Notes under the pieces: model-generated
Told to the model about the DNA's origin: nothing
Databases searched by the model: none
Seen by the model: only the letters and a program-made list of their open reading frames with translations
Made by a program: the position numbers and the translations under genes
In this document: positions 2-53,300 of the stretch, in pieces
How the letters are laid out: each line of letters starts with the position of its first letter
Position numbering within the stretch: position 1 is the stretch's first letter
Assembly (NCBI GenBank): GCA_963558185.1
Contig: CAUWFE010000004.1
Coordinates: 2,395-66,394 of the forward strand
Length of the DNA: 64,000 nt
From: an uncultured Clostridia bacterium
Lineage (GTDB): Bacteria; Bacillota; Clostridia; TANB77; CAG-508
Direction: 5' to 3'

Positions 2-1027
2 AAAAAAGCCGTATCAAACCAGTTAGAAGTTGTATCTCAAGCAATAGAAAACTTAGCAGACGAATTGCAACAAAATAATAAGGAAAATGAAGAAGCATTT
101 TCAATACAAAAAAAAGAAATAAAACAAATATTAGCACAAAAAAATATTTTAATAGAAAATATAGATATTGAAAAACAAAAAAATGGAAGAATGCAAATAA
201 AGTTATACACAAAAACTTGTGAAAATGTGGAAAACTCATGTCCAGATATAAAAAAAGTTGCTAAAATTTTATCTAAAATATGTGGAGAAGAATTAACATT
301 GCAAAAGCAAGAATGTGGAATACGTAATCATAATGAGAAATGTATTTTTACATTTTTATCTCAAGATAAGCACAGCTTGCAAATAGGAATTGCAAAAGCA
401 ACAAAAGAAAACTCATTAATATCAGGAGACACAAACTTACAAGTAAAACTTGATGATGGAAAATACTTAATAGCATTAAGTGATGGAATGGGCTCAGGAG
501 AAAAAGCAAGAAAAACAAGTAAAATGGCAATAAGCATGTTAGAAAAATTATTATCATCAGGCTTTGATAAAGATACTTCATTAAAATTAATAAATAGTGC
601 AATTCATAGTATATATAACAATGGAAATGAAGAAATGTATGCAACATTAGATATAGAAATATTAGACTTGTATGCAGAAAAATTAGAATTTATGAAAAAT
701 GGAGCATGTCCTACATTTATAAAACATAATAAAGATGTACAAGTACTAAAAACAATTTCATTACCAACAGGGATATTAAGTGATATAGATTTAATTGTAT
801 ATGATAGAGATATACAAAAAGGAGATATAATAGTAATATGCAGTGATGGAATATTAGAATCAACAACAGAATATACAAACAAAGAACTATGGCTTAAATT
901 TTTATTAGAAGATATAGAAACAGAAGATGTACAGAAAATAGCTGATTTAATTTTACAAGAAGCTATAGATAATAGTTATGGCGTAAAAAAAGACGATATG
1001 ACAGTAATAGTAGCAAAAATTAAATAA
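2..1027 (+). CDS. spoIIE: Stage II sporulation protein E, C-terminal PP2C phosphatase part. The 5' end lies outside the window.
   Basis: The reading frame is open from the window edge (codons from nt 2, no stop). The translation carries the SpoIIE/PP2C blocks GDTNLQVKLDDGKYLIALSDGMGSGEKA, ICSDGILE and DDMTVIVAKI. Confidence 0.8.
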   Translation, partial: KKAVSNQLEVVSQAIENLADELQQNNKENEEAFSIQKKEIKQILAQKNILIENIDIEKQKNGRMQIKLYTKTCENVENSCPDIKKVAKILSKICGEELTLQKQECGIRNHNEKCIFTFLSQDKHSLQIGIAKATKENSLISGDTNLQVKLDDGKYLIALSDGMGSGEKARKTSKMAISMLEKLLSSGFDKDTSLKLINSAIHSIYNNGNEEMYATLDIEILDLYAEKLEFMKNGACPTFIKHNKDVQVLKTISLPTGILSDIDLIVYDRDIQKGDIIVICSDGILESTTEYTNKELWLKFLLEDIETEDVQKIADLILQEAIDNSYGVKKDDMTVIVAKIK

Positions 1028-1117
1028 CAAGTATTGAAAATTTACATAAAATGCAGTACAATATAGGTATTAACTTTAAAAATCCCGTGAATTAATTAAT
1101 TTTAAAGGAGGAATATC

Positions 1118-1471
1118 ATGAAAAAATATTATCAAGCTGAATTGCGGTTTTTTGACGAAAACGACAAAGTATATTGCTATACAGAAGGAATTGTAAGAAA
1201 TGAAAATGGAATAATAGAAGGTTCTTTTGATGAAATATGTTATTACATTTTGTTACAAACCTCAGAAACAAGAATGGAAGGATTCCTAGTAGATTTTGAT
1301 AATTATGCAATAATATCAATAAATGATAAAGTTGACTTTTTTGAAATACCAGGAAAATATCTTATAGAAAAAGAAAATGTAAAGTTTTCATTTTCTATAA
1401 ATTACCAAATTAAAGATAGGAATATATTAGAAAAATTTGAAGATATTGTTAAAGAAATTAAAATGGAATGA
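1118..1471 (+). CDS. Hypothetical protein (117 aa)
   Basis: ORF with GGAGG a few nt upstream of the ATG, followed immediately by an intrinsic terminator. No family recognised. Confidence 0.55.
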   Translation: MKKYYQAELRFFDENDKVYCYTEGIVRNENGIIEGSFDEICYYILLQTSETRMEGFLVDFDNYAIISINDKVDFFEIPGKYLIEKENVKFSFSINYQIKDRNILEKFEDIVKEIKME

Positions 1472-1500
1472 GAGCTTTACTAAAGCTCTCATTCTATTTT
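1470..1500 (+). terminator. Rho-independent terminator
   Basis: gagagcttt / aaagctctc forms a 9-bp stem with a 3-nt loop, followed by the T-rich attctatttt. It overlaps the stop codon of the 1118 ORF. Confidence 0.7.
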
Positions 1501-1539
1501 AATATAATAGGAAAGTTCTCCAAACTTTCCTATTATATT
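1501..1539. repeat. Perfect 17-bp inverted repeat (AT-rich hairpin), function unknown
   Basis: aatataataggaaagtt (1501-1517) pairs perfectly with aactttcctattatatt (1523-1539) around a 5-nt loop. No flanking T-run on either strand. Confidence 0.6.
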
Positions 1540-1593
1540 AAAAGCTTTCGCTAAACATTCCACACAAATTTTATTTTATAAAATTTGGCGGGC

Positions 1594-1658
1594 GAACAAA
1601 GACGAGGCATGAAAAGTCATTAAAAATGTTGAAAATATTAATCATGCCTCTTTTGTTC
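1594..1658. other. Long imperfect hairpin in an otherwise unassigned intergenic region
   Basis: gaacaaagacgaggcatga (1594-1612) pairs with tcatgcctcttttgttc (1642-1658): 7 + 9 bp with a small bulge and a 29-nt loop. It is preceded by a locally GC-rich ggcgggcg. Confidence 0.4.
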
Positions 1659-1791
1659 TAATATTTATTGCAATTTAGTAATATGTAATTCTAAGTAAAA
1701 AGATATATATTATTTTTTTAATACTACAGTATAGCTTTTTAAATAATTCTATGATATAGTATAATAGAAAAATTGAAAGGAATGAACCAAT

Positions 1792-3309
1792 ATGAGTAGA
1801 GGAAAAAGATATAACGGAGAAAAAAAATTAAACATGAAAAAAGTATGGGCAGTAATTATTGCAATATTAGTAATTATAATGTTTTTTGCAATTATTGGTA
1901 GCCTATTAAATGAAGATGACTCAAAAATAAAAGAAAAAACCTTTGCAATTGGATATTATCCAGTATTAGAAAATGGAAAATGGGGAGTAATAGATACAAA
2001 TCAAAAAATAGTAATAGAGCCACAATACAGTGAAATGATTGTTGTGCCAGATAATACAAAACCTGTATTTGTAGTTATTTCAAATGTCGACTATCAAACA
2101 GGAAACTTCGAATCAAAAGTAGTTGATAAAAATAATAATCAATTATATACAAATTATCAAAAAGTAGAAGTAATATATAATCATGATAAAAATAATAATT
2201 TGTGGTACGAAGAAAATGTACTAAAAGTAAAAAATAATGAAAAATACGGGTTAGTAAATATAGATGGAAAAGAATTACTTGCATGTGAATATGATGATAT
2301 ATTACCAATCGAAGGAATAAAAAAATCATATATAACAATAAAAAATGGAAAAAAAGGTTTAGTAGATAATACAGGAATGATTATAGCAGATAATATTTAT
2401 CAAAATATAGAAGCTTTAACAGATAAATATGAAGACGGCTATATAGTAACAAGCGAAAATGGAAAAAAAGGAGTAATAAAATCAAACAAATCTTTAGTGT
2501 TAGAACCAAAATATGAAGAAATAGAGCATGTATATGGAAATAACTGCTATTCTGTAAAAGAAAATGGAAATTTAAAAATAGTAAATGAAAAAAAAGAAAC
2601 ATTTTTAGAAGGAAAATATAATAAAGTCAAAGAAATAAATGGAGAAAACATAATATATGAAAAAGAAGGAAAATATGGCATAATGAACTTACAAGGGGAA
2701 GAAAAAATATCACTAGAATATGATGATATAAGTTTTGCTTTTTCAGAATATTATATTGCAAAAAAAGGTGATAAATATGGAATTATATCATTAACTGAAG
2801 AAACAAAATTAGACTTTATATATTCGTATATATCATACCAAAAAGAAGCAGATTTTATACAAGCACAAATGCAAAATTTAGAAACAAGTTTACTAGATAG
2901 AAATTTTGAAGTAAAAGCTAAAGGTGTTGTTTCAGAAATAAATACAAATAAAAATTATATACGCGTAAGAGATGGCGAAAATTATAAATACTATAACTTT
3001 AAGTTAGAAGAAAAATCAAACACAGAAATACTACAAGGAAATACACTTTTCTTAAGTAAAAAAGATGGAAAATATGGATATGTAGATGAAAAAGGAAAAG
3101 TTATAGTAAATTATATATATGATGATGCTACAGAACAAAATAAATATGGATATGTAAGTGTAAAAAAAGATGGAAAATGGGGTTCATTAAATCAAAAAGG
3201 AGAAACAATATTAGAACCAACATATACATTAGAAAATAACCTAATAATAGATTTTATAGGAAAATGGCATTTATCAGAAGATATGAATGCATATTACTAT
3301 ACAAAGTAA
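1792..3309 (+). CDS. WG-repeat (KWG-type) protein with an N-terminal membrane anchor
   Basis: N-terminal TM segment (VWAVIIAILVIIMFFAIIGSLL). This is followed by more than 10 repeats of the G(K)(W/Y)G(V/L/I)(I/V)(D/N)..G..(V/I)(I/L)...Y(D/E)... type, e.g. GKWGVIDTNQKIVIEPQYSEM, EKYGLVNIDGKELLACEYDDI, GKYGYVDEKGKVIVNYIYDD. Confidence 0.75.
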   Translation: MSRGKRYNGEKKLNMKKVWAVIIAILVIIMFFAIIGSLLNEDDSKIKEKTFAIGYYPVLENGKWGVIDTNQKIVIEPQYSEMIVVPDNTKPVFVVISNVDYQTGNFESKVVDKNNNQLYTNYQKVEVIYNHDKNNNLWYEENVLKVKNNEKYGLVNIDGKELLACEYDDILPIEGIKKSYITIKNGKKGLVDNTGMIIADNIYQNIEALTDKYEDGYIVTSENGKKGVIKSNKSLVLEPKYEEIEHVYGNNCYSVKENGNLKIVNEKKETFLEGKYNKVKEINGENIIYEKEGKYGIMNLQGEEKISLEYDDISFAFSEYYIAKKGDKYGIISLTEETKLDFIYSYISYQKEADFIQAQMQNLETSLLDRNFEVKAKGVVSEINTNKNYIRVRDGENYKYYNFKLEEKSNTEILQGNTLFLSKKDGKYGYVDEKGKVIVNYIYDDATEQNKYGYVSVKKDGKWGSLNQKGETILEPTYTLENNLIIDFIGKWHLSEDMNAYYYTK

Positions 3310-3386
3310 AAAAATAGGAGAAGACCTAAAAAATAATTATAATTTTTTACAACAAGATTTGTGTCTTAGGAAGGAATGAAATAAAA

Positions 3387-4601
3387 ATGGAACGAAGGAC
3401 GAAATATCAATATACTTATTTTATACATCCATTTATCATAGAAGAAGAAAAATACGAAAATTATATTTTGAAATTAATGAAAGATAAAAGATGTGAATTA
3501 AAAATATTTACAAAAGAAAAAGATTTAAACTTATATACATATTTCATGCCAAAAATAAGAGATTACTTATTTTGGTCAATATCATATGGTCAAAAACAAA
3601 TAAAAACATTCAACGAATTAGATATAAAATTAAAGGCAAGAATGTTAGCACAAAAACAATGTATAATGTTTAATTTTAATATGGGTGAATATATACAAGG
3701 CAAAGTAGGAGAAAAGAACGGTATATTCTTTGATATACCTAAAATAGAAATAATATGTTTTAAAACAGGAGTATGTTTTTTACTAATAAAAACAATATTA
3801 AGTGATGAGAGTCAGATGAATGAAATATTAAATTTCAACTATAAATTTCGTGATATAAATTCAGATTACTCAAAATTACAAGAATATGAAAATATTAAAA
3901 TTCAAACAAATCGCTTTCAATATGTTAAAGACTTACAACAAATTGTAAAAGAAATAACAGGTGAGAATGACTTAACTAAAAAAATAAATGTTGAAAGTGA
4001 AAGATTTTTAACATACACATATGTATGTTTAGATCAAGAATTTTGGAATGAAAATAAAAGTTTTGAAGAAGTTGAAAATGATTTTGTAAAACTAAAAAAT
4101 GTATTGCCAGCAAAAACACAAATGAATATAGATATAAATTCAAGTCAATCAATTACATTATCAACTTTGCAATATGTAAAAATAGGAATAACAAAGCAGG
4201 CAATAGCTTTATTAACATCAAGTATAAATACAGCAAATTATACTAAAATACCACATATATTTGAAAACGAATATTTATATACATATATATTTGCATTATA
4301 TCAAAAAATATTTTTAGAAAAAATAAAATATGAATTTAAAGAAAAAAGTTTTTCAAAGGTGGAAAAAAGCTTTGTTGAATTTACAGAAAGTGTATGGAAT
4401 GAAGATATTACATCAAATGTAGATGGCTCAATGCTATATAAAGAAATGCATAAAAATTATGATATTGAAAAAGATTATCAATCAGCAAAAAGTAGATATG
4501 AAATTGCCAATAAAAAGAATAACAGTAAAAGAATAAGAGATATATCATATATATTATTAGTACTATTTTTAATTATAATAGCAAAAATATTATTTTTTTA
4601 A
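3387..4601 (+). CDS. Hypothetical protein (404 aa) with a C-terminal transmembrane tail
   Basis: Intact ORF. The only hydrophobic segment is at the extreme C-terminus (ISYILLVLFLIIIAKILFF). No family recognised. Confidence 0.55.
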   Translation: MERRTKYQYTYFIHPFIIEEEKYENYILKLMKDKRCELKIFTKEKDLNLYTYFMPKIRDYLFWSISYGQKQIKTFNELDIKLKARMLAQKQCIMFNFNMGEYIQGKVGEKNGIFFDIPKIEIICFKTGVCFLLIKTILSDESQMNEILNFNYKFRDINSDYSKLQEYENIKIQTNRFQYVKDLQQIVKEITGENDLTKKINVESERFLTYTYVCLDQEFWNENKSFEEVENDFVKLKNVLPAKTQMNIDINSSQSITLSTLQYVKIGITKQAIALLTSSINTANYTKIPHIFENEYLYTYIFALYQKIFLEKIKYEFKEKSFSKVEKSFVEFTESVWNEDITSNVDGSMLYKEMHKNYDIEKDYQSAKSRYEIANKKNNSKRIRDISYILLVLFLIIIAKILFF

Positions 4602-4614
4602 GAAAGGGATATCT

Positions 4615-4990
4615 ATGAAAATTAAGTGTGGAACAGATATTATAGAAGTACCAAGAATACAAGAATCAATAGAAAATATTGGTGATGCATTTTTAAATAG
4701 AGTTTTTACAGATAAAGAAATTAAGTATTGTAAATCAAAGAAAAACATGCAATATCAGCACTTTGCAGCAAGGTTTGCTGCAAAAGAAGCCGTTTTTAAA
4801 GCAATATCAGATTATTTTGAGAATAAATATGATATATCTTGGAAAAATATAGAAATATTAAATGATAAAAAACGGAAAACCTTATGTACAATTTGTAGGA
4901 ATAACTTTAAATGATATACAAGATATAGATATTAGCTTGTCACATTTAAAAGAGTATGCTATAGCAACATGTAGTATACTTACAAAATAG
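4615..4990 (+). pseudogene. acpS: Holo-[acyl-carrier-protein] synthase interrupted by a +1 frameshift (or an assembly indel)
   Basis: The N-terminal part (GTDIIEVPRI, FAARFAAKEAVFKA) is typical AcpS. After the A6 run at 4867-4872 the frame gives RKTLCTICRNNFK*. The +1 frame instead gives NGKPYVQFVGITLNDIQDIDISLSHLKEYAIATCSILTK*, the expected AcpS C-terminus. Confidence 0.8.
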
Positions 4991-4999
4991 GAGGCAAAA

Positions 5000-5786
5000 T
5001 TGGAATTTTTTGATACACATAGTCATTATAATGATGAAAAATTTGATGTAAATAGAGAAGAAATAATAAATCAAACTTATAATGAAAATATAACGAAATT
5101 TACTTGTTGTGGATATAATGAAGAATCATCAATAAAAGCAGTAGAATTGGCAAAAAAATATCCATATATATATGCTATATGTGGAATTTCACCACAAGAA
5201 GCACCGCGGAGAAAAATGTGAAATAAGTGAAAGAATAAATAAAATAGAGCAACTTTTAAAACAAGATAAACAGCACAATATAGTAGCAGTAGGAGAAATA
5301 GGGTTAGATTATTATTGGGTAAAAGATAATAAAGAAATACAAAAAGAATTATTTATAAAGCAAATAGAATTAGCAAATACATATAAATTACCTATTGTTA
5401 TACATACAAGAGAAGCAGTTATGGATACTATACAAATAATAAAAGAAAATAAGCCACAAAAACAAGGTATAATTCATTGCTGTGCATTTAATAGAGAACT
5501 AGTAAAAGAAGCATTAAAACTAGGATTTTATATCTCATTTGCAGGTCCAGTAACTTTTAAAAATGCAAAAAATGCAGAAGAAATTGTAAACATGGTACCA
5601 TTAGATAAATTATTAATAGAAACAGACAGCCCATATTTAGCACCAGAACCTAAAAGAGGAACTCGCAATAATTCTATAAATGTAAAATATATAGCAGAAA
5701 AAATAGCAATTTTTAGAAAAATGCAATTACAGGACATAGCCAAAATAACATATGGAAATGCAAAAAATATATTTCAAATTAAATAA
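5000..5786 (+). pseudogene. tatD: TatD-family metal-dependent hydrolase split by a single-base frameshift (or an assembly indel)
   Basis: TTG start after AGGAGG. The N-terminal ORF has FDTHSHYND. The second ORF continues with VAVGEIGLDYYW, PIVIHTREA, IIHCCAF and ETDSPYLAP. The two frames join around ccgcggagaaaaatg (5205-5217), where removing one base restores a single ORF. Confidence 0.8.
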
Positions 5787-5918
5787 TAAAAGTATAAATA
5801 TAATATATAATAAACAAAAGTAAAAAGGAAAAGAAAAAATGAAAAAAATAAACGGGCAAAGCCTTGGGAGAGTATATATATCGACAAATGTAGTAAAATA
5901 AAAATAAATAAAAAAGAG

Positions 5919-5971
5919 GATAGTAAAACAAAATCTGTAATAGATACAGGTTAGTTTTGCTATCTTTTTTT
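5919..5971 (+). terminator. Rho-independent terminator, probably ending the acpS-tatD transcript
   Basis: gatagtaaaac (5919-5929) pairs with gttttgctatc (5954-5964) using one G-U pair. It is followed by T7 (5965-5971). Confidence 0.75.
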
Positions 5972-6010
5972 CATGGATTAGCTTTTAATAAAATAATTAT
6001 TGAAATAAAA

Positions 6011-6067
6011 ATGTAATAAATATGTAACAAAAATGTAATTGAATTAAATTAAAGGTTAATATATAAT
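6011..6067 (+). promoter_or_regulatory. Promoter cassette copy A: three ATGTAAY heptads at 11-bp phasing plus TTGAAT-17-TATAAT
   Basis: ATGTAAT 6011-6017, ATGTAAC 6022-6028, ATGTAAT 6033-6039. The -35 TTGAAT is at 6039-6044, followed by a 17-nt spacer and the -10 TATAAT at 6062-6067. Identical at 61 of 66 positions to 35022-35087. Confidence 0.6.
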
Positions 6068-6102
6068 ATAAATAAGGAAAAAAGAATGCAAGGAGGAAGA
6101 AA

Positions 6103-9100
6103 ATGGAGGAAATACCAATATTAAAAAAAGATATAAAGAATAATATAATAGAAGAAAAATCTATAAACAAAAATAAAAAACATAGGGAAAAGGAAAAAGG
6201 GATAACACTAATAGCATTAGTAGTAACAATAGTAATATTAGTAATATTATCAGCAACAGCAATAACCATGATAATAGGGGAAAATGGACTATTTGACCAA
6301 GCAAAATGGGGAAGCTTTAGTAGTAGATTTGCAGACGTAGAAGAAATAAGGAACATATATGAAGCAAGTAAAGAAATGGAAGAAATACAAAGTCAAACAA
6401 AGCTAAAAATAGAAGAAAAGAAAGGGCTAACAGGAGAAGTAAGCAAAGAAGAAAAAGAAGAAATAGAAAAAAATAATAAAACCCTAAAAATAAAAATGGA
6501 AGAACTAAGTGGAAAACCACTAGAAGAACTAAAAATATATTGGATAGACAACAAAAAAATAGGAACACAAGTAAAAGAAAAATATGTAATAGACGTAGAA
6601 ACAAACCAAATATATCAATATAAAGGGGAAAAAATCTACGGAAAGATATGGCATACATTAGATGACGGAATAGGAGAAAATGACGGAACAATAGAAGACG
6701 AAGATAAAGAAAACTTTGAAGGGTGGATAAAACTAACATTAAACTATCCAGAAAACTCAACAGACTGGAAATGGAGACTAGTGGCAGTAGGAGAAGTAAG
6801 AAATGATCCAGAATTAATATGGAAAGAGTACACAGGACCAATATGGGTAAGAATCCAAGATGTAGAAAACGTATGGATGAGATATAAAATGAACGGAGAA
6901 GACGTAATAGTAGCACCAGAAGGAAGAGTAGTAGTAGATATAGAAGCAGATAGCTATTATCCAGACCTAAGAGAAAAAGTAAAAGTAAAAATAAACTATG
7001 ATAAAGGAGCAGAAATAAAAGAATATAAAGTAGGAAATGGAGAGTGGAAAGAATACCAAGGAGAATTCTATGTAACAGAAAATACACTAATAGAAGCAAG
7101 AGCAAAGAAAACAGAAAGAATATTAAATGAATTTGGAGAAGTAGAATCAGAAACAGAAAGCTGGGGAAGAGACAATTTATATATAGGAAATATAGGAATA
7201 GAAGAAACAGAATTACCAGCACCAAGAATAATAAAAAAAGAAGGAGGAACAGGAGAAGTAGCCAAAGTAGCAATAGAATATCCACAGGAAGCTCAAGGAG
7301 GAAAACAAATATATAAATTAGACTATGGAGAAGAACAAGAATATAATGGAGAAGTAGGAATAGAAAAAAATGGAACATATGTAATAGCATATTACTATAA
7401 CCAAGAAGGAAAAAGAAGTAAATCAACAAGTATAAAAATAATAGAAAATGGAGAAAGCCAAGGAGGAGAATATATACCAAATAAACCAGGGATAAACGGA
7501 GAAAATGGAGAAAGTAACCCAACAAAGCCAAGCTATAAAATACCAGGCCCCGTAATAAGTGAAAATGGAGGAAATGTAAGTATAAGCTTGCCAGCACAAA
7601 CAACAAATAAAGAAGCAAAAGAGAACAAAATATATTATAAAATATTAGGACAAGGAGGTTACAAAAGGTATACGGCATCATTTAAAGTAGAAATGACATG
7701 TACAATAGCCTCATACTATATAACAGAGAAAGGTGAAATATCAGAAACAACATATAAAGATGTATATATAGCAGAACCAGGAATGCCAAAAGTAACAATC
7801 CAATTAAAACCAAGTGAATATGAAGTAAAATATAATGCAGGAAAAGTAGAAGTAACAATAAAAGCTCAAGACAGTGAAAAAATAGAATATAGCTTTAACA
7901 AAGTAGAATGGAAAGAATACACAAAACCAATAGAAGTAACAAAAAACTGTAGAATATATGCAAGAGGAACAAATAGTAATGGAGAAACGATAGAATATAA
8001 AGACATAACAAACCTAGGAGCACAGCCAGAAATACCAGACACATTATCAGTAAACATAAGCACAAAAGATATTCAAGGGCAAACAGGAAAAGTAGAAAAA
8101 GTAAAAGTAAGTATAGGATATGATGGAAGAGCACAAAGGAAATACTATAAAATAGGACAAACAGGAGAAATAAAAGAATATACAGGAGCCTTTGAAGTAG
8201 ATAAAAACTGTACAATATATGCATATGCAATATCAGAAAAAGGATATGGAGAAGCCCAAAAAGGAATAGATAGTATAGAAAAAGGAATAGATAGTATAGA
8301 AAAAGGAATAATGGACCCAATAATAACAGTAAAACCAAATGAAAACTATCAAGCATCAAAAGTAAAAGTAGAAATACAATATGATAAAAATGTGACACAA
8401 AAGAAATATAGAATAAATAAAGGACAATATAAAGACTATACAGAAAGCTTTGAGGTAGAAGAGAATTGTGAAATAGAAGCATATAGTACAAATGCAAAAG
8501 GAAAAATAGGAAAAAGCACATATAGAATAACAAATATAATAAAAGAAGATGTAATAACAGTAATAGACCAAGGAGATTACTATATAATAAGACTAAGCTA
8601 TCCACCAACAGCAATAAATAAAGAATATAAATGGCAAGAAAAAGGAACATGGAAACCATATCATAATACAGGAATACTATTAGCTAAAGAAAAAATAAAA
8701 CAGCAAGTAGAAGGAGCAGATGTAGTAAAAGTAAAAGATGAAGGAGGAAAAGAAATAACATTTGATAAAGAAGACATCTACTTTATTACAAAACCGGTAA
8801 ATGAATTAATAGAACAAATATATATGAGATGGGATAATAGAACACCAACAATGCCAGAAATAATATTAAGTACAGAAGAACCATGCTTAGAACTAGATGC
8901 AACAATAAAGTATAGTAACACAATAATAGAAAAGAAATATAGAATAGTATATCCAAATGGAGTAATAACAAGTTGGAAAGACTATAAAGATGGAGAAAAA
9001 ATCCATGTAACACAAAAAGGAACAACAATATATGCAAAAGGGCAAGATGAAACAGGAATGTGGACAAAAACAGCATCAAGACAGATTAATAATATAGATG

Positions 9101-10839
9101 AAGAGCCACCAGTAATAAAAGTAGAAGGAGACTTTGATACAGAAACAACGCAATTAGGCCTAAAAATAGGAGTAACAGATGATGTAGGAATAGAAAAGAT
9201 AAAATGGTCAGAAGGAAATCAATTAGAAAGTTACTTTAAAGAAAATGGAGAACTATTATATGAAAAAGAAGGAGAAACACAAAAGAAAGTAGAAAAAGAA
9301 ATAAAAGTAAAAGCAAATGGATATTATACAATATATGCAGAAGATATAGTAGGAAATAGTGGAATATTTACACTACAAGTAGGAAATATAGACTTAATAC
9401 CACCAAAAGTAAGTATAGATGTAAAACCAGAAGAACTAACAACACAAGTAAAAATAAATATAGACTATGAAGATAGTAAAATAAAAGAATATAAAATAGG
9501 AAATAGTGGATGGAATAACTATACAGGAGAAATAACATTAAGTTCATATACAGTAATAACAAATAAATGGATGAATGCAGATGGAACAGTAACAATATAT
9601 GCAAAAGGAATAGACGTAGCAGGAAATGAAACAAACACAGAAAAAACAATAAATAATTTAGATACACAATTACCACAAATGCCAGTAATAAATTCAAATT
9701 ATGGATATCCAATATTAACAGAGTATGGGGTAAAGAAAGATGGAAAAACAACAATAACGTTTGATACAAGTAAAAATGTAACCAATTACTATAAAATAGA
9801 TGAAGGACAATGGATAGAATATACAGGAGAATTTGAAATAGATAAGGAATGTACAATATATGTAAAGAGTGTAAAAAATGATAGTGGATTGGGAGTAAGT
9901 ACAAGTAGAACAATAACATCACCAACAGATGCATTAGGAGAAGCAGCATATGATGGAGATGAAAATACAGGAGATGAATATACTAAAGAAGGAAGCAAGT
10001 ATGTATATGTAGATGAAACAATGCAAGGAAGAAATATTAGAATCAAAATATATGAAAATTATAGTGCAGATGTTGAATTTTATTCTATGACAGGACAAAA
10101 GATTAGTGAATTTCATATTAATGATAATGATAACTATGCAACAGAAAATATAGTAGCAATACCGGAAGGAACAAAAAAAATTGGAATTAAAAGTTTGGCA
10201 GCAGGTGAATCTATATTTAAAACAATAGTATATGAAATACAAGTTTCAAACGAACCGAGATTTACATCGACAAAAGGATACCCATTATTACATGCAGAAG
10301 TAGACAAGCAAATAAAAGAACCATATGAAATGGTAAGTATAAATTATTTTCCAACAAGTGTACAAAGATTGTATAAAATAGGAGATGGAAAATGGATAGA
10401 TTACAAAGATGAAGCCGTATGGGTAAATCAAGGAGAAACAATATATGCAAAAGGAATAGATAAATTTGGAAATGAAACAAGAATAATAAGTTCATATACA
10501 GCAAATGTTTCAAATGCATTAGCGAAAGAAGCATTTGATGGAGATGAAAATACAGGAGATGAATATACTAAAGAAGGAAGCAAGTATGTATATGTAGATG
10601 AAACAATGCAAGGAAGAAATATTAGAATCAAAATATATGAAAATTATAGTGCAGATGTTGAATTTTATTCTATGACAGGACAAAAGATTAGTGAATTTCA
10701 TATTAATGATAATGATAACTATGCAACAGAAAATATAGTAGCAATACCGGAAGGAACAAAAAAAATTGGAATTAAAAGTTTGGCAGCAGGTGAATCTATA
10801 TTTAAAACAATAGTGTATGAAATACAACATTCAAATTAA
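6103..10839 (+). CDS. Giant (1578 aa) repeat-rich surface protein with a prepilin-like (class III signal-peptide-like) N-terminus and two C-terminal lectin-like modules
   Basis: AAGGAGG RBS. The N-terminus ...EKEKGITLIALVVTIVILVILSATAITMIIGENG resembles a pilin leader plus hydrophobic helix. At least 10 repeats of roughly 85-95 aa carry the pattern (K/R)YYKIG.G.W.EYTG.F.V..N.TIYA.., which resembles chitobiase/hexosaminidase C-terminal-type beta-sandwich repeats. The C-terminal module YDGDENTGDEY...IRIKIYENY... is duplicated. Confidence 0.85.
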   Translation: MEEIPILKKDIKNNIIEEKSINKNKKHREKEKGITLIALVVTIVILVILSATAITMIIGENGLFDQAKWGSFSSRFADVEEIRNIYEASKEMEEIQSQTKLKIEEKKGLTGEVSKEEKEEIEKNNKTLKIKMEELSGKPLEELKIYWIDNKKIGTQVKEKYVIDVETNQIYQYKGEKIYGKIWHTLDDGIGENDGTIEDEDKENFEGWIKLTLNYPENSTDWKWRLVAVGEVRNDPELIWKEYTGPIWVRIQDVENVWMRYKMNGEDVIVAPEGRVVVDIEADSYYPDLREKVKVKINYDKGAEIKEYKVGNGEWKEYQGEFYVTENTLIEARAKKTERILNEFGEVESETESWGRDNLYIGNIGIEETELPAPRIIKKEGGTGEVAKVAIEYPQEAQGGKQIYKLDYGEEQEYNGEVGIEKNGTYVIAYYYNQEGKRSKSTSIKIIENGESQGGEYIPNKPGINGENGESNPTKPSYKIPGPVISENGGNVSISLPAQTTNKEAKENKIYYKILGQGGYKRYTASFKVEMTCTIASYYITEKGEISETTYKDVYIAEPGMPKVTIQLKPSEYEVKYNAGKVEVTIKAQDSEKIEYSFNKVEWKEYTKPIEVTKNCRIYARGTNSNGETIEYKDITNLGAQPEIPDTLSVNISTKDIQGQTGKVEKVKVSIGYDGRAQRKYYKIGQTGEIKEYTGAFEVDKNCTIYAYAISEKGYGEAQKGIDSIEKGIDSIEKGIMDPIITVKPNENYQASKVKVEIQYDKNVTQKKYRINKGQYKDYTESFEVEENCEIEAYSTNAKGKIGKSTYRITNIIKEDVITVIDQGDYYIIRLSYPPTAINKEYKWQEKGTWKPYHNTGILLAKEKIKQQVEGADVVKVKDEGGKEITFDKEDIYFITKPVNELIEQIYMRWDNRTPTMPEIILSTEEPCLELDATIKYSNTIIEKKYRIVYPNGVITSWKDYKDGEKIHVTQKGTTIYAKGQDETGMWTKTASRQINNIDEEPPVIKVEGDFDTETTQLGLKIGVTDDVGIEKIKWSEGNQLESYFKENGELLYEKEGETQKKVEKEIKVKANGYYTIYAEDIVGNSGIFTLQVGNIDLIPPKVSIDVKPEELTTQVKINIDYEDSKIKEYKIGNSGWNNYTGEITLSSYTVITNKWMNADGTVTIYAKGIDVAGNETNTEKTINNLDTQLPQMPVINSNYGYPILTEYGVKKDGKTTITFDTSKNVTNYYKIDEGQWIEYTGEFEIDKECTIYVKSVKNDSGLGVSTSRTITSPTDALGEAAYDGDENTGDEYTKEGSKYVYVDETMQGRNIRIKIYENYSADVEFYSMTGQKISEFHINDNDNYATENIVAIPEGTKKIGIKSLAAGESIFKTIVYEIQVSNEPRFTSTKGYPLLHAEVDKQIKEPYEMVSINYFPTSVQRLYKIGDGKWIDYKDEAVWVNQGETIYAKGIDKFGNETRIISSYTANVSNALAKEAFDGDENTGDEYTKEGSKYVYVDETMQGRNIRIKIYENYSADVEFYSMTGQKISEFHINDNDNYATENIVAIPEGTKKIGIKSLAAGESIFKTIVYEIQHSN
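8260..8310 (+). repeat. In-frame 21-bp tandem repeat, about 2.4 copies
   Basis: aaaggaatagatagtatagaa occurs at 8260-8280 and 8281-8301, then a partial aaaggaata at 8302-8310. It encodes KGIDSIE KGIDSIE KGI. Confidence 0.85.
9952..10826 (+). repeat. 585-bp-period tandem duplication inside the giant gene, with a 290-bp almost identical core
   Basis: 9952-10241 and 10537-10826 are identical by eye except one position (10230 A versus 10815 G). The first halves of the two 195-aa units are strongly diverged. Confidence 0.85.
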
Positions 10840-34248: not shown

Positions 34249-35023
34249 ATGTTAGCACTTATTACACGGAGCTTCTTCAGGAATAGGGCGAGATATGGCT
34301 AAATATTTATATAAACTTGGATATGATATTATAATTACAGCAAGAGAAGAAGGAAAATTAGAAGAATTAAAAAGTGAATTACAAATGACAAATAATTCAC
34401 AAATAGTGCATGTAATAACAGCTGATTTAAGTGATGAAAAGCAAGTACTAAATTTATATGAAGAAATAAGAAATAAATTTAAAAATATAGATGTAGTAAT
34501 AAACAATGCTGGTTTTGGACTATTTGGAAAATTTGTACAAACCGACTTACAAACTGAATTAAATATGATACACACAAATGTAATTGCAGTTCATATGTTA
34601 ACAAAATTATTTTTGCAAGATATGGTATTAAAAGATAGTGGAAGAATATTAAATGTAGCATCAGTAGCTGGATTTATGCCAGGGCCACTAATGACAACAT
34701 ATTATTCAACTAAAAATTATGTATTTCGTATGTCTGAAGCAATAAATAAAGAACTAAAAAAGATGAATTCAAATGTAAAAATAAGTGTATTATGCCCAGG
34801 ACCAGTAAATACTAATTTTAATAATGTGGCAAAAGTAAAATTTAATTTAAGGCAAGCATCAAGTGAAAAAATAGCTAAATATGCAATAGATAAAATGCTA
34901 AAAAATAAATTTAAAATAATACCAGGAATCGATATAAAAATAGCAAGATTCGGAAGCAAAATACTGCCAGATTCAATATTAGCAGAAATATGTTATCATA
35001 TGCAAGAAAGAAAAAATAGATAA
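34249..35023 (+). pseudogene. Short-chain dehydrogenase/reductase with a single-base frameshift in the cofactor-binding motif (or an assembly indel)
   Basis: The ATG at 34249 after AGGAGG gives MLALIT, then runs out of frame. Deleting one base at 34266/34267 gives MLALITGASSGIGRDMAKYLYKLG, which continues into the 34295 ORF (NNAG, YYSTK). Confidence 0.8.
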
Positions 35024-35029
35024 ATAAAA

Positions 35030-35086
35030 ATGTAATAAATATGTAACCAAAATGTAATTGAATTAAGACAAAGGTTAATGTATAAT
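35030..35086 (+). promoter_or_regulatory. Promoter cassette copy B: three ATGTAAY heptads plus TTGAAT-17-TATAAT
   Basis: ATGTAAT 35030-35036, ATGTAAC 35041-35047, ATGTAAT 35052-35058. TTGAAT at 35058-35063, a 17-nt spacer, and TATAAT at 35081-35086. Identical at 61 of 66 positions to 6003-6068. Confidence 0.6.
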
Positions 35087-35114
35087 AAATATAGATACGT
35101 ATTAGGAGGGAAAA

Positions 35115-36507
35115 ATGAAAGAAAATAATCAAGGAATAACTTTAATTGCATTAGTAGTTACAATAATAATATTAGTAATATTGGTGTCTGTAAGCATAAC
35201 AATAATTTTAGGGAATAATGGAATAATAAAACAAGCACAACAAGGGGCAGAGTCTATGAAAGAATCAGAGGCGAAGGTAGAATTAGAAATTGCATTGCTA
35301 GAATTGGAATCAGAAAAAATATTAAATGAAAAATATAATCAAAATGAATATATAGATCAATATTTAATACAAAAGAAAATGATCGTGAGAAAAAATATAG
35401 TAATAGTGGATGGAAATTTGAAATAGATAGAAGTGTGCCAAAAATAATAAATTCACTAGGAAAAGAAGATAAAATTGTAGATACAGAAATATATACATTA
35501 GAAGACTTAATAAAATTTGCTCAAGAAGTAAACAATGGTAAAACTTTTGAAGATAAAACAATTAAATTAATGAATGATATAGATTTACAAGGAAATGAAA
35601 ATAATCAATGGGTACCAATAGGAAATGATTCTAACTATTTTGCAGGAATATTTAAAGGAAATAATCATATAATAAATAATCTATATATAAAAGATTCTAA
35701 CAAGGAAAAATTAGCTCTATTTGGAAACTGTAATAATGCACAAGTAGAAAATTTACAAGTAAATGGATATATAAGTGGTGGTAAAAATATAGCAGGAATA
35801 ATAGCTATAGCAGAAGGGACAAATATTATAAATTGTATTAACGGTGTAGAAGTTATAGGTACTGGAAATAATATAGCAGGAATTGTGGCATATGCCAGTA
35901 ATTCATATATTGAAAAATGTATAAATAATGCAAATGTTACAGGTAATGCATCATGTAATGGGGGAATAGCAGCTGTTACAGAAAGTACTGATATTGTAGA
36001 ATGTTGTAATTTAAATGTAATTACAGGAAATGCAGCAATAGGAGGTATAGTTGGACAGGCACATGCTAAACAAGCAAATGCTAAAATAGAATTTTGCTAT
36101 AATATTGGAAGTGTAATTTCAATAAAAGGAAATTCCAACAATAGGGCATATGTTGGAGGAATTCTTGGAATGGCAACTGAAGGTGAAACAGCTATAAATT
36201 ATAGTTATAATATAGGTGATGTACAAAAAAAGTAGCAGAAGCTAAATGCTCTGGTGGAATAATAGGAGGAGTTTCAAAAGAATATGAAACAAAATTAACT
36301 GTTAGGAATGTTTTTACAACTGATGAATCATATAAACCATATTTGAGTTCATCAGAACCTGTATATAGTGGAGTAAATATGGATTTAACGAAAGAACAAT
36401 TAATAAATTGGAATCAAGAAGATATAGATAAATACTTAACAAATAAATTTATAGAAACTACAGATGTAAATTCAGGTTTTCCAATATTAGCATGGCAAAA
36501 TAAATAA
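35115..36507 (+). pseudogene. Pilin-leader GLUG-repeat surface protein broken by two -1 frameshifts at A-tracts (or assembly indels)
   Basis: The N-terminus MKENNQGITLIALVVTIIILVILVSVSITIILGNNG matches the leader of the 6103 gene. The frame continues in the -1 frame after the A4 run at 35371-35374 (...ENDREKKYSNSGWKFEIDRSVPKII...). The middle ORF has GLUG-type repeats (NIAGIIAIAEG, NIAGIVAYASN, NGGIAAVTES, IGGIVGQ, VGGILGMA). After A7 at 36225-36231 the next frame continues KVAEAKCSGGIIGGVSKE...GFPILAWQNK*. Confidence 0.75.
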
Positions 36508-36729: not shown

Positions 36730-39700
36730 ATGAAAAAAACTAGAATTTTATTTTGTATTATAATTATTAGCATTTTAATATTTATAATTGGTGGAACAAT
36801 TGTAAATTCTATGCAAGTAGTTAGTTTACAAACAAGACAGCAACCAGTTATAGATATTGTTTTAACAAAAAATAAATCTAAAGTAGATATATCTAACTTT
36901 GAAAAAGATTTAAAGGCAGAGCTTGAAAAACAAAATATAGATCCAGAAAAAGTAAATGTACAAGAAATACAAACAGAGGACTTTTCAAGCAATTCAGCAG
37001 ATGCAGCAGATATACTAAATAACTGGGGTAGAGTGGGCTATCCAGGAGATTGGCATTATTCAGGAAATGAAGTAATAAACAGAGAAAATACTAATGATTT
37101 AACAGGTTTTTATTATCCTGATAATTTTGGATTTGATGATATAGATTTTTCATATGAGAATATGAGTGATAATTCTGATGATGATATAATGGGATCAATG
37201 TTTAGATTTAATGTAAATGAAAACGGAACTGTAACCACATATTTGTTACTATTAAATAAAAGAGATAATAGTGGAGGATTTAATTATGAAAATGGATTAT
37301 ATAAAATTACAAATAATCAATTTTCATTATCAAACCTACAATTATTACAAAAAACAAATGCAACATGGACTAGAAATACATGGTCTAAATACCATATATT
37401 AGCAAAGGGAAATAACATAAAAGTATATCAAAATGATAACTTAATTATAGATTACACAGATCCAGATCCTATATATACAGGTTCATATGGAATATTTTCA
37501 TGTAGCCAACCATATGCAAGATATAGAAATATAGGCTTAACGGTCACAAACTATAAAAATTTCTTAGAAGTATTACAACAAGCTAAATGGAAAGATGATG
37601 CATTAAGATTAATAGTAAATGTAGAAGATAAAATAAATAAAGATTTAGAAGATGAAGGAGTTTTAAGTCAAGCAATATCTAGATTTTTAAGTCAAGATAT
37701 TCATTATGTGGGATGGGGAACTTCTGAAAATGCAGAACAAATACAAAATATAGTAAACAAAAATGATAATAAAGGAACATTTATAGAAAATATAAATTAT
37801 GAACAAGCAATACAAGAAACAGTAAAATACATAAAAAGCTTATTAGAATCATATCCAACAAATCAAAATTTAATAATAAATGAACCTATAGATATGCAAG
37901 TAACACCAGAAAATTTAAAAAATAATACAATAAATGCAGCATATCCAAATGGAAGATGGAAAGCAATCCATAATGAAAATTTCTATGAAAATAGTAATGG
38001 AAAATATATAAATAGTGGAAACTTTCAAGATGCAATAATGGAAGAATTTGAAAATGTAGGAAAATATGATATATATTTTGAAAACCAATTAATAAAAGAA
38101 TTATATTTACATAGAAGACCAATAGCAATAATAACAAGTAAAATAGAAAATGGTAAAATTACACTAAGTTCAGAAAAATCATATGATTTAGATAGACAAT
38201 CAGCATATAATGGAATATCAGAGGAAAAATGGTTTTATAAAAAAGTAGAAGATAAAGAATGGACAGAAGGAAAATTAGAAACAATACAAGAGGGAGAAAA
38301 TTATTTAGTAAAGCTTATAGTAAAAGATCATCAAGATACATGGAGTAAAGATGCAGTACAATATATATCAACAAGTGCAACAAAACCTATTGCTCAATTT
38401 GAAGTTGTAAAAAGTGAAATTACTGTATATGAAAATTTACAATTAATAGATACTTCATATGATCCAGTAGGTAAAGCAATAGTAGAACATAATTGGAAAT
38501 TATATAAAGGAAAAGATGAAATATATAGTGGACAAGAAGCACCTGTTAACTATCAACAATATGGAGAAGGAACATATAGAATAGTATTAAAAGTAAAAAA
38601 TGTAGATGGACTTGAATCAGATGCATTTGAAAGAGAAATTACAGTTCAAGAAGATAAAATAGCGCCTAAAGTGCATGTAGAACCTTCTGAACAAAGAAAT
38701 ATGCATGAAAATATTTCTGTAAATTTAAGTTTTATAGATATAGGTGGTAGTGGATTTAAGTCATATAAATATGCAATAACAAATGATAAAAATGCAAATG
38801 TAGAATATAGTGATTGGATTAATAATATAAATGATACAATTAAAATTAATCAAAGTGGGGCGAATTATTTACATATAAAAACTGTAGACAATGCAGGAAA
38901 TGAAAGCGAAGATTTAGTGTTTGGTCCATATACAATAGAAGAAGAAAGAATTCCAATACAAATTAATGCTGTTGATAAAGAAGACAATAGTGTAAAACTA
39001 GGAGGTTTACAATTCGAAATAGTTGAACCAAAAGTAAATGAACAAGAAGAAGACAAAAGAATAAATTATGAAACAGATGAAAATGGAAAAGCAGATGGTT
39101 TAATAGATGTAATGAAAACAAATGGTAAATACACATATATTTTGAAAGAAGTAAATACACCTAGTAGTTACAATTCTATAGGAGAAACAAGCTTAACAGT
39201 AGATATACAAAATGGAAAAATAGTATTTATAAACAGTAGTAATCCAAATGTTCAAGCAGAAATTACAGCAGACTATAAAATAAATATAATATGTAAATAC
39301 GCAAAAGTAGAAAAACCTTTTTATAATTTTGTAATACACACAATAGATAAAAATAGTGAAAGTATAAAAGTAAAAGATGCAAAATATAATGTAGAAGTGT
39401 ATTCAAACAATTCAGAAATAATAAAAAAAGAACTTGTAACAAATCAAGATGGTATAGCACAAATAGATAAATTAGCAGGAAGTGGAGAAATCAGTTTCGT
39501 AATCAATCAAATAGCTACAAATAATGGATATAAAATTCAAGGTAATGAAATTGTAGTTACAATAAATAGAGATAAAAATACAAATAAAATTTCTGGAGTT
39601 GCAAATAAAACAAGTAAAAATGCAGAAGTATATATAGACAATAAAAGACAAGAAATTAGTCTAGTTATAGCAAATGACAAAAAGGTAGAAAAAAATGCCA

Positions 39701-42700
39701 TCAGAATAGAATTAATAGGTGAAGCAAATGAAAATTTAGAGAACATAAAGGTAAAACTTGAACAACCTTTAGATTTAGGAATTATAGAGGCAACAACAAA
39801 TACAGAAGGTTTAGCAAATATAGATAAAATACAATATCCAGGAGAGGGAGAATTTTCATATATAATAAAGGGTGATTCAAATAATATATACGAATTCCCA
39901 GATGTAAAATTACCAGTTACATTTAAAAATAAATTAATAAAATCAGTTAAGCAATATGAAAATGCACAAGTAATAAAAGAAGAAAATGATGAAGAAGTAA
40001 TACATACATTACATGTAAAAATAAAAGCAAAATTAAAAGAAGAATATAAAATTACTCAACAATTTAAAATTAAGAAAGAAAATTTACAAGCTGAGTTATT
40101 ACCTGGAATTATGTATAGAGTTACTATAAAATCAGATAATTTTGTAAAAACAATAAAAACACAAACAGATAAAAATGGAGAAATTTCTGTTCCACTATGG
40201 AATAGTGAAAAATTAGAAATAACAGTAAAGGAATTAAAAACATTAGAAGGATATAAATTGGATCCTACTGAAAAGAAAATTGTTTTAGTAAAAGGTGAGA
40301 ATAATCAATATAATATTAATACAGAAGAAAGTGCAAAAAATGTAACTAAAGATGAAGTAACAGGAGATATAATTTTAAAAGAAATAAATGAAAAAAAGGC
40401 AGAATCTATTGAAAAAGCTAATATATGTTTCTTTTTAACAAAAAAAGATAAATTGGGAAATCTTTTAGGAAATACTGAATTTAAATTAAGAGCAGAATAT
40501 GGAGATAATAGAAGTAAAGAATATATACTAAAAACAGATGAAAATGGATATGTAGAATTGCATGATTTTAAAGTTAAAGAATTAGGCAAATATACATTCT
40601 ATATACAAGAGCTATCACCAGTACCAGGATATGAAATTATATCTGAACCTATACAATTACGAGTTGATTATGAACAAAATGATAAGGGAGAAATAAAAAC
40701 AAGCACAATATTAGTGGAAAAAGGATATAGAGACATAGAATACAAAAGATGTGATGAATACGAAACAGATGAAAATTATCAATTAGATGTACATATGACA
40801 ATTATTGACAAATTTAAAAAGCCAAATTATAAAATTGAATTTGAAAAAATAGGTGCGAAAAATGAAATTTTAACAAAAACTGAATTTGAAGTTATATTAA
40901 AATATGATAATGGAGGATCAGTAAAAACAAAAGGAAATGCAAAGGAAATAGCACAATTCTTTAGTAATTTAAATATTCCTAACGGAAATATAGAAGTTAA
41001 AATAATAGAAACAAAAGCAGAGCCAGGTTATCAATTAGACTCTACACCAAAAGTAGGAATATTAAAAAATACTGGTAAAGGCTTAGAAATTGTAGAAGAT
41101 AAAAGTAATATTTTTAAAGAAGATAATAAAAATATAAAAATTCAAATACAAAATAGCCTTATAAATAGTAATGGTGATGGAAGTAATATAACAGATGTAG
41201 AAGATACTTATTTTGCACTAGAAGTAATTAATGAAAATATCCATAATGATAAAGCAAGTATTATTGGCTCTAAATTTAATGCCAAACTAATTCAAAATGG
41301 AACTATTATAATGAATAGAACTAGAGGAATCGGAAATATTGGAAACAAATCAATATTTGAATATATATTTGCATCAGGAGATTTGAAATTTGAAATAACA
41401 CAAACTAAAGCACCATTACATCATAAAATAAATAATAAAACATATGTAGTTTCATTTAATAGAGATAAAAATACAGAAAAAATAGTAATAGATGAAAAAA
41501 ATACAGATGAAGAATTAGAAGTAGAAATAGATGAAGTTAATCATAAAATTATTGTAACAATAAAAAATGAATTAGCATATTTAACAATGGGAATTATAAC
41601 AGTAGATAAAACTGACACATCACTTAGACTAGCAAATGCAGGTTTTTATGTTAGTAAATATCGCGATCCAAGCAGTGAGGATTACAAGACCTATGGATAT
41701 GGAGTAACAGATAATACAGGAACAGTTATGATACCAATGTATACATATATAACAAATGGATCTGCTATATATGAAGTAAATCAAAAAAAGGCTCCAACAG
41801 GATATTATGCACAAGAAGAAATTGGACTTAATATAACAACAGATAAAGAAGGAAACATAACAAATGCAAAATTACACCAAGATGATATTTATCTTCCAGG
41901 TGAATGTAAGATAAATAAAATAGAAGGAAACTATATTGAAATTATAGTTGAAAATGAAAGAAAACCTGAGCCAACATACAAAGTAATTATTGAGCCATAT
42001 AATAAATATAATCCTATAATATCAATAGATGATGTAAAATTTGATGTAGAAATAAAACAAGAAATAGGAACAAATTTAAGAACAATTGCAACATCATCAG
42101 AAGGAAATGCTACAATAAATGGATTAACTGGTCAAGGTGAAATACAAATAAATCTACAAGAAATAAGTATTCCTAATCAATATTTATTAGATACACAAAT
42201 AAGAACAGTATTTGTAAATAGAGAGATTAAACAACAAGTTAGTTCACAAGGGGGAAATGTATATTATAAAAAATTACAACTTTCAGATAAAACTGATAAA
42301 AATGTAGAAGTAACTGTAAATAATACAAAACAAGAAATATGTATTAGAATTCCATGTATTCCTAAAGCAGGTATTGAAATAAATAAAGTAGGAAGTGTAG
42401 ATAATGACATAAAATTAGAAAAAGTAGAATTCGGAATTTACAAAGGGAAACAACTTGTAGGAAATTTAAATACAGATAATAGAGGAAGAGCATTTTTCTC
42501 ATTTGGAAGTATTATACCAAACTCAACAGAAGTATATACAATAAAAGAAGTAAAAACTCAAGACGGATATAAACTTCTTCCAGAAGATATAGAAATAACT
42601 GTAATATATGATTCAAAAGGAAATGTGCAAGAAGCATATATAACGAAAGGAAAAGAATATGCTAGTGTACAAAAGTATAATAATCAGCCAAATATAAAAT

Positions 42701-53240: not shown

Positions 53241-53300
53241 TAGTACAATAGCCATGTGCAAAAGAGAATAAAATGTAGTAAATTAAAAGGAGCAAAAAAT

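Follow-up and report, generated by a model that had tools for sequence, protein, structure and literature searches.

The window analysed here, 64,000 nt of contig CAUWFE010000004.1 from an uncultured Clostridia bacterium, is chromosomal DNA of a spore-forming Firmicute with genes for SpoIIE, BofC, a SpoVD-like penicillin-binding protein, MinDE, RodA, rpoB/rpoC, L9, DnaB, FtsH, TatD and ComEC. Two of its genes start with a GITLIALVV leader, which a six-frame regular-expression search finds at 6199 and 35133 only. Upstream of each lies the same promoter cassette, in which an array of 7-bp direct repeats runs into a predicted promoter (Table 1). Here we describe this cassette, its distribution and the kind of protein that may read it.

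Compared without gaps, 6003-6068 and 35022-35087 are identical at 61 of 66 positions, just as the first-pass annotation of this DNA had reported, and the four 60-nt segments flanking the two blocks are identical at 15-20 of 60, the chance level for the window. Random 66-mer pairs drawn from the window, which is 26% G+C, match at 21 positions on average and at 40 at most in 20,000 pairs. A repeat search of the window pairs 5992-6074 with 35011-35093 (83 nt, 86%) and finds these two copies only in the family.

Each copy holds three ATGTAAY heptads with 4-bp A/T-rich spacers and a period of 11 bp, also as annotated before, to which we add a fourth, degenerate unit. The units are named U4 to U1 toward the promoter. 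The pattern ATGTAAY-N4-ATGTAAY-N4-ATGTAAY occurs exactly twice in the window, 5′ of the two leader genes and nowhere else. With three mismatches allowed, one more match appears, a shifted register on copy 1, while 0.10 matches are expected and none of 100 shuffles reaches three. Each copy contains two overlapping exact WalR-type sites (TGTAAY-N5-TGTAAY). The U4 of copy 1 leaves one mismatch to this pattern and is in register with the U4 of the five other cassettes compared below.

The last T of the third heptad is the first T of the -35 element in both copies, and the 66-bp block first annotated ends one base beyond the -10 element. The operator thus consists of four head-to-tail 11-bp units of the consensus AAATGTAAYAW, centred near -38, -49, -60 and -71. 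Both the promoters and the start sites of transcription are predicted from consensus, with the start sites placed at about 6074 for copy 1 and about 35093 for copy 2. A strong intrinsic terminator ends about 30 nt 5′ of cassette 1 and insulates this promoter from upstream transcription. The start of copy 2 coincides with the stop codon of the upstream SDR gene.

Table 1. Coordinates of the array units, predicted core promoters, terminator and leader-type genes in the window (ORF, open reading frame)
Feature	Position	Strand	Sequence or product	Basis or remark
U4, copy 1	6001-6006	+	degenerate hexamer TGAAAT	one 11-bp period 5′ of the first heptad
U3-U1, copy 1	6011-6039	+	ATGTAAT-AAAT-ATGTAAC-AAAA-ATGTAAT	pattern scan
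Predicted core promoter, copy 1	6039-6067	+	-35 TTGAAT 6039-6044, 17-nt spacer, -10 TATAAT 6062-6067	promoter scan 10/12
U4, copy 2	35020-35025	+	degenerate hexamer ATAAAT	overlaps the TAA stop of the upstream SDR gene (34295-35023)
U3-U1, copy 2	35030-35058	+	ATGTAAT-AAAT-ATGTAAC-CAAA-ATGTAAT	pattern scan
Predicted core promoter, copy 2	35058-35086	+	-35 TTGAAT 35058-35063, 17-nt spacer, -10 TATAAT 35081-35086	promoter scan 10/12
Intrinsic terminator	5912-5971	+		RNA fold dG -25.9 kcal/mol, z -6.15, then U-run; conserved in L120 and L126
Gene 1	6103-10839	+	1578-aa surface protein, leader KGITLIALVVTIVILVILS	OmpL47-type/Ig-like repeats, duplicated C-terminal domain
Gene 2	35115-36507	+	leader-type (MKENNQGITLIALVVTIIILVIL...)	at least three ORF pieces: 35115-35426, 35435-36235, 36343-36507

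A miniature inverted-repeat transposable element or a larger dispersed repeat, which the first-pass annotation had named as the finding to fear, is rejected. The two copies are at most 83 nt long, share no flanking inverted repeats, have flanks at the chance level and are always 5′ of a gene. An invertible promoter is rejected too, as copy 2 lacks a flanking inverted repeat and copy 1 has only weak A/T-rich ones. No Rfam family matches anywhere in the window.

Six cassettes were compared, the two window copies and those in loci L120, L126, L247 and L042. L120 is a syntenic contig of a close relative reached via a protein homologue, L247 was reached via another protein homologue, L042 via the array pattern and L126 via the core-promoter pattern, as the sole match of the metagenome scan. 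The six come from at least four taxa, and a gapless alignment of them runs from U4 to the -10, with the four units in the same register and the core motif GAATTAAnnnAAAGGnTAATnTATAAT in common. Each has one degenerate unit, at a position that differs between cassettes. Their promoters read (T/A)TGAAT or TAGAAT, then the spacer GAATTAAAnnAAAGGnTAAT, then TATAAT, and all six are 5′ of genes with GITLIAL, GVTLIAL or AVTLIAL leaders. In L042 it is U1 that is degenerate (CGTAAT), with the -35 altered to TAGAAT.

The 5′ untranslated regions (UTRs) and upstream flanks of the six are unalignable. As the cassette is conserved and these are not, the block is under selection as a promoter and is no mobile repeat. 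The two window copies are paralogous copies of one cassette. L247 holds five leader-type ORFs within 5 kb (272-5020), some of them truncated. Between two of the five, part of the 3′ portion of the cassette occurs again, which suggests recombination among cassettes or a chimeric assembly.

The heptads might have no function of their own, being part of a recently duplicated or gene-converted promoter or serving unit-number slippage for phase variation. In favour of this are the 92% identity of the two copies, which extends over the -35/-10 spacer, the degenerate U1 and altered -35 of L042, the surface proteins encoded downstream and the frameshifts of Gene 2 at A-runs. However, the constant register of the four units over six cassettes speaks against it, the units are non-identical and so a poor slippage substrate, no inverted repeats flank them, and they recur before unrelated, non-homologous promoters with quantised spacing. 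We therefore hold this explanation to be very improbable.

The array is not confined to these cassettes. A genome scan for its pattern gave at least 119 stretches, and all family counts given here are among the matches listed. About half of the matches are in uncultured gut 'Clostridia/Clostridium' metagenome-assembled genomes (MAGs) of 25-33% G+C, in which the arrays have A-rich spacers and 3-6 units like those of the window. The genes downstream in 58 loci fall into at least 29 families unrelated to one another. The most frequent target is veg (PF06257; 9-10 loci), and a conserved protein of about 105 aa is the target in 8-9 loci. The others include a 360-aa HExxH protein, TasA-like proteins with SipW-type signals (L028, L040, L082), VanW/G5/peptidoglycan-binding, SLH, vWA, GDSL and Big_2 proteins, and FIST, GT4 glycosyltransferase and NifS-like proteins. 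Leader-type genes also have arrays in L042, L047 and L083.

An N-terminal hydrophobic segment, the mark used here for exported proteins, is present in 13/29 target families vs 86/241 controls, which is no significant enrichment (p = 0.22). No tRNA gene adjoins an array, and veg and the other array-adjoining families of other loci are absent from the window. Secondary arrays in 404 kb of low-GC loci number 10 against 0.55 expected. Their density of about 2.5 per 100 kb, next to 2 per 64 kb in the window, gives an estimate of roughly 50 arrays in a 2-Mb genome.

The element is not a by-product of AT-richness, because about half of the matches come from one MAG group and the secondary arrays far exceed expectation. 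Equally AT-rich cultured genera are nearly missing among the matches listed. The array is a clade-wide element of uncultured low-GC gut Clostridia, at an estimated 50 or so promoters per genome, and is not private to the leader genes. The kinship of the window organism with the veg-type MAGs is drawn here from composition, shared motif and source habitat, not from phylogeny. Our literature searches found no description of this array.

This distribution bears on the proposal of the first-pass annotation that the array marks a small regulon serving the pilin-leader surface-protein family alone. The only two arrays of the window do precede its only two leader genes, the four orthologous cassettes elsewhere are likewise 5′ of leader genes, and L047 and L083 have other arrays before such genes. 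However, the exclusive pairing in the window is largely explained by the paralogy of its two promoters, which makes it one event. The array also precedes about 29 other families in the related MAGs at the density given above. Moreover, the more distant leader genes of L121-L125 and L248-L253 and the further leader ORFs of L247 have no array. The dedicated regulon is thus improbable and is not supported.

Other matches are of a different kind. More than 120 are in viral contigs (IMG/VR, L127-L246) as 11-bp ATGTAAC iterons with G/C-containing spacers. Unrelated iteron families of this kind recur in Bacteroidales MAGs too (the non-viral loci are L001, L027, L031, L036, L066 and L099), with ...GTTATGTAACTATCATGTAACTACCATGTAACTAC... 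and ...CGTATGTAACAAGTATGTAACGGGTATGTAACACGTATGTAACAAAC... as examples, and the latter type is found in Phascolarctobacterium L031 as well. The viral ATGTAAC iterons are unrelated to the promoter array and uninformative for it.

In the low-GC MAGs, the arrays are 5′ of recognisable TTGACA-17-TATAAT promoters and not within 5′ UTRs. In 14/14 well-scoring promoters within 60 nt, the -10 follows the last perfect unit at 21/22, 32/33, 43/44 or 54 nt, so this spacing changes in steps of 11. Toward the promoter, the adjoining unit fits TGTAAY at 5/6 positions or better in 25% of arrays vs 1.5% of background. As this neighbour is often a degenerate copy, the arrays usually reach the -35. The register with the -10 is a direct observation, as are the anatomy, the conservation and the wide distribution.

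Spacer positions 8, 10 and 11, which the search pattern does not fix, are A at frequencies of 0.83, 0.79 and 0.84 vs 0.43 in the background (59 arrays of low-GC Clostridia MAGs). The array is co-oriented with the downstream gene in 31 loci and anti-oriented in 7, or about 16 vs 5 when counted by family (binomial p about 0.013). In the veg loci, it overlaps the stop codon of the upstream gene and is about 93 nt from the -10. Arrays very often start at or overlap an upstream stop codon (e.g. L012, L021, L024, L038, L097 and L117, and 35020-35025 in the window). The heptad contains ATG-TAA and recurs three times at an 11-bp period, so every reading frame meets a stop codon, and with it a start-stop pair, within an array.

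The A-rich spacers raise the question of whether a regulator is needed at all. An UP element is an A/T-rich stretch at -38 to -59 that acts on the RNA polymerase alpha subunit alone and is typical of the strongest rRNA, tRNA and ribosomal-protein promoters. The A-tracts phased at 11 bp might likewise curve the DNA or offer a surface to the alpha C-terminal domains, and so boost a strong promoter. The A-runs do lie at about -42..-45 and -53..-56, where the UP subsites are, arrays occur in both orientations, and the targets include veg, whose promoter is a classic very strong one.

Yet TGTAAY is as conserved as the A-runs, and the arrays extend past -60 and can sit at about -105. Neither the window nor the 404 kb of related loci has an array at an rpoB/rpoC, ribosomal-protein (L9) or tRNA promoter, and the near lack of equally AT-rich cultured genera among the matches listed does not fit either. 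We rate a protein-free effect as improbable, about as low as the dedicated regulon.

The array has instead the layout of an OmpR/PhoB-type operator, with 11-bp direct repeats, an A-rich spacer and the proximal unit at the -35, the veg loci with their 93 nt being the exception. In operators of this type, the A/T-rich spacer is where the wing contacts the minor groove. This layout, as the first-pass annotation had proposed, agrees with that family of winged-helix response regulators. We favour such an operator because of the 7+4 layout with its A-rich spacer, the variable number of units and the proximal unit abutting a weak -35.

The known operators of this family resemble it to different degrees. 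The ArcA and OmpR operators of enterobacteria have 2-6 direct-repeat units spaced by 10-11 bp, the number of which sets occupancy and output. The array shares with them the variable number of units at similar spacing, but differs in phylum, half-site and physiology. The Pho box of PhoB in E. coli and PhoP in B. subtilis is also a 7-bp direct repeat with a 4-bp A/T-rich spacer, repeated 2-6 times in a fixed helical register so as to abut or replace the -35. The PhoB consensus CTGTCATAWAW, as quoted in PMC4168254, differs from ATGTAAYAWAA here at two positions. However, the half-site here is TGTAAY and not TGTCAY or TTHACA, the -35 (TTGAAT) is still recognisable, and no phosphate-related genes are among the array targets.

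The closest half-site is that of WalR/VicR (YycF) of the Firmicutes. Its consensus is TGTWAH-N5-TGTWAH (PMC4168254, PMC9210968), refined by footprints in S. mutans to TGTWAHA-N4-TGTWAHA, which the authors note to resemble the PhoB box closely (PMC4168254). Both systems have hexamer direct repeats at 11 bp centre to centre, the TGTAAT and TGTAAC of the array are inside the consensus, an A follows the hexamer as in the S. mutans form, and sites are 5′ of cell-envelope or surface genes on either strand. A Streptococcus match (L094) was considered as a known VicR target and rejected, since the genes downstream are not known regulon members.

Genes of the OmpR family (Response_reg plus Trans_reg_C, verified by Pfam) are found near ATGTAAY x3 arrays in three unrelated bacteria only, a Melioribacteraceae MAG, a Pseudomonadota MAG and an unclassified MAG (L085, L098 and L112). 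The arrays of L085 and L098 each have a divergently transcribed regulator gene no farther than about 70 bp away (array regions about 4508-4610 and 5841-5925, respectively). In L112, the order is response regulator, histidine kinase, array and target, with the regulator gene at 6491-7177 and the array at 4255-4283. These arrays are probably autoregulatory or target sites, judged by position, and their occurrence beside OmpR-family genes in three unrelated bacteria implies that such arrays are used by that family.

On these grounds, we propose that the upstream half of the cassette is an operator fused to a sigma-A-type promoter, TTGAAT-17-TATAAT, and that its most likely reader is an OmpR/PhoB-family winged-helix response regulator whose half-site specificity, TGTAAY, is like that of WalR/VicR. 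The four units would hold two dimers arranged head to tail, with the protomer nearest the promoter placed against the imperfect -35, where it would activate transcription by recruiting RNA polymerase. Both the identity of the binding protein and activation as its mode of action are what we infer from the sequence and by analogy. We regard this proposal as evenly poised between right and wrong.

Several observations weigh against it. No OmpR-type regulator gene is found in the window or in 59 low-GC loci by tblastn with a WalR probe, in line with the first-pass annotation that had seen no candidate regulator in the window. No DNA-binding regulator is found among the annotated window ORFs either, nor does any gene transcribed divergently from an array in the low-GC loci encode one. 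The veg arrays are too distant for direct contact with the -35, and the seven reversed arrays are also just 5′ of promoters. The 11-bp register could come partly from degenerate units bridging the gap to the promoter. In addition, the 17-nt spacer itself is conserved across the six cassettes, which could reflect a second factor binding there or recent common ancestry of the cassettes.

The likeness to WalR has its own limits, which count on the same side. WalR usually binds a pair of half-sites and controls a small regulon made up mainly of peptidoglycan hydrolase and cell-wall metabolism genes, the NlpC/P60 hydrolase being the classic target type in Bacilli. The arrays, by contrast, contain 3-6 units, and the regulon estimated here is far larger, with veg and many cytoplasmic or unknown proteins among its targets. 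No walRK genes are seen. Of the 29 mixed families, only VanW/G5 and SLH are clearly wall-related. The sole NlpC/P60 hydrolase gene of the window (53256-54707), an SH3-NlpC/P60 cell-wall hydrolase gene 3′ of a MazF toxin gene, has no TGTAAY box upstream. Since the regulon is too large and too mixed and this gene has no box, membership in the WalR regulon proper is not established by the sequences.

The number of units, more than a single dimer needs, leaves room for another kind of reader. The direct repeats that RemA protects 5′ of matrix-gene promoters are 7 bp long, AT-rich and periodic, and number at least six (PMC8481266). Likewise, the RemA-dependent promoters of eps and tapA in B. subtilis have periodic 7-bp AT-rich repeats 5′ of sigma-A promoters for matrix or surface genes. 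A RemA-like ring-forming protein, another DNA-polymerising or wrapping protein, or a clade-specific regulator of an undescribed family may thus bind the array.

A RemA gene (PF04025, E = 1e-36; match verified by Pfam) is in the array-bearing MAG locus L004. The targets include veg and the TasA-like proteins with SipW-type signal peptides, and some arrays are about 100 nt 5′ of the promoter. Veg is a biofilm stimulator and RemA a biofilm activator.

However, the repeats bound by RemA follow a 10-bp period (7+3), show little conservation and are placed far upstream, whereas the arrays here keep a strict 11-bp period in 3-6 units with conserved heptads, contact the -35 in the window and have a half-site that exactly fits the known winged-helix consensus. 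Such a reader is accordingly unlikely. UP-type or curvature effects, simple paralogy and slippage rank below this RemA-like activator, the main rival, because of the points raised against each.

Spo0A was tried as the reader of the array and rejected, as L118 has canonical TGTCGAA boxes beside a distinct array. Two canonical Spo0A boxes (TTGTCGAAATTTGTCGAAAG) are there on the reverse strand just 3′ of the array and overlap the -35 of a promoter with a reversed array, which suggests combined control by Spo0A and the array in L118.

The leader-type genes themselves are less certain as pilins than first annotated. Their leader G|ITLIALVV has Ala at +5, not the Glu of type IV pilins and pseudopilins, scores 16-17 bits against Pfam N_methyl with a cut-off of 21.2, and has no NCBIfam prepilin match, so the 'pilin leader' label is weak. 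The wider leader (E/R)KGITLIALVVTIVILLILAG...G(D/E)NG(I/L) (6199-6250 and 35133-35182 in the window; proteins P0002-P0034) marks a large gut-metagenome protein family, similar to a prepilin signal with Ala for Glu at +5. Most of its members have no Pfam annotation.

Gene 1 has the Shine-Dalgarno sequence AGGAGG at 6091-6096. A 300-nt direct duplication (9926-10225 and 10511-10810, 98% identity) gives it two near-identical C-terminal domains of about 100 aa, which weakly match a galactose-binding-like domain. Gene 2 is frameshifted near A-runs at about 35375-35435 and again 3′ of 36235 and is either a pseudogene or a victim of assembly errors. Homopolymer assembly errors are as likely as true pseudogenes, because TatD (5172-5786) also looks N-terminally truncated in the window and is in three pieces in the related long-read contig L120.

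Just 3′ of this broken gene, 36730-45714 encodes a 2994-aa surface protein with a signal peptide, 11 SpaA/prealbumin-fold repeats, DUF11 and a C-terminal anchor, which may share the promoter of Gene 2. Elsewhere, an (AC)18 microsatellite (L122 7765-7800, also in L123 and L124) lies about 175 nt 5′ of an LRR_5 surface-protein gene (start 7975), itself immediately 5′ of the leader-type LRR_5 gene P0015. Its length is equal in the three samples, so no phase variation is seen.

As to its kind, the cassette joins a direct-repeat operator of ordinary type to a standard sigma-A promoter, which makes it a new member of a well-known class and not a new mechanism. It is a clade-wide operator of this familiar type, undescribed until now, and the array is probably the docking site of one global regulator. 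More tentatively, it might be the signature operator of an undescribed lineage-specific global regulator, either a WalR-like response regulator whose regulon has grown greatly or a protein outside the OmpR family that polymerises over 3-6 units; this is possible but doubtful. If true, about 50 promoters would be under the joint control of one regulator confined to a lineage of uncultured, spore-forming gut Clostridia of low GC content, among them the promoters of veg, the small conserved protein, TasA-like and SLH proteins and giant pilin-leader-like adhesins.

No gene regulation has been described in these organisms, which are known from metagenomes alone. A sharply defined and easily scanned operator gives a computational handle on a large regulon, and the 44-bp array is a concrete bait for finding the regulator. 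The regulon includes giant surface proteins that likely mediate contact with the host or with food particles.

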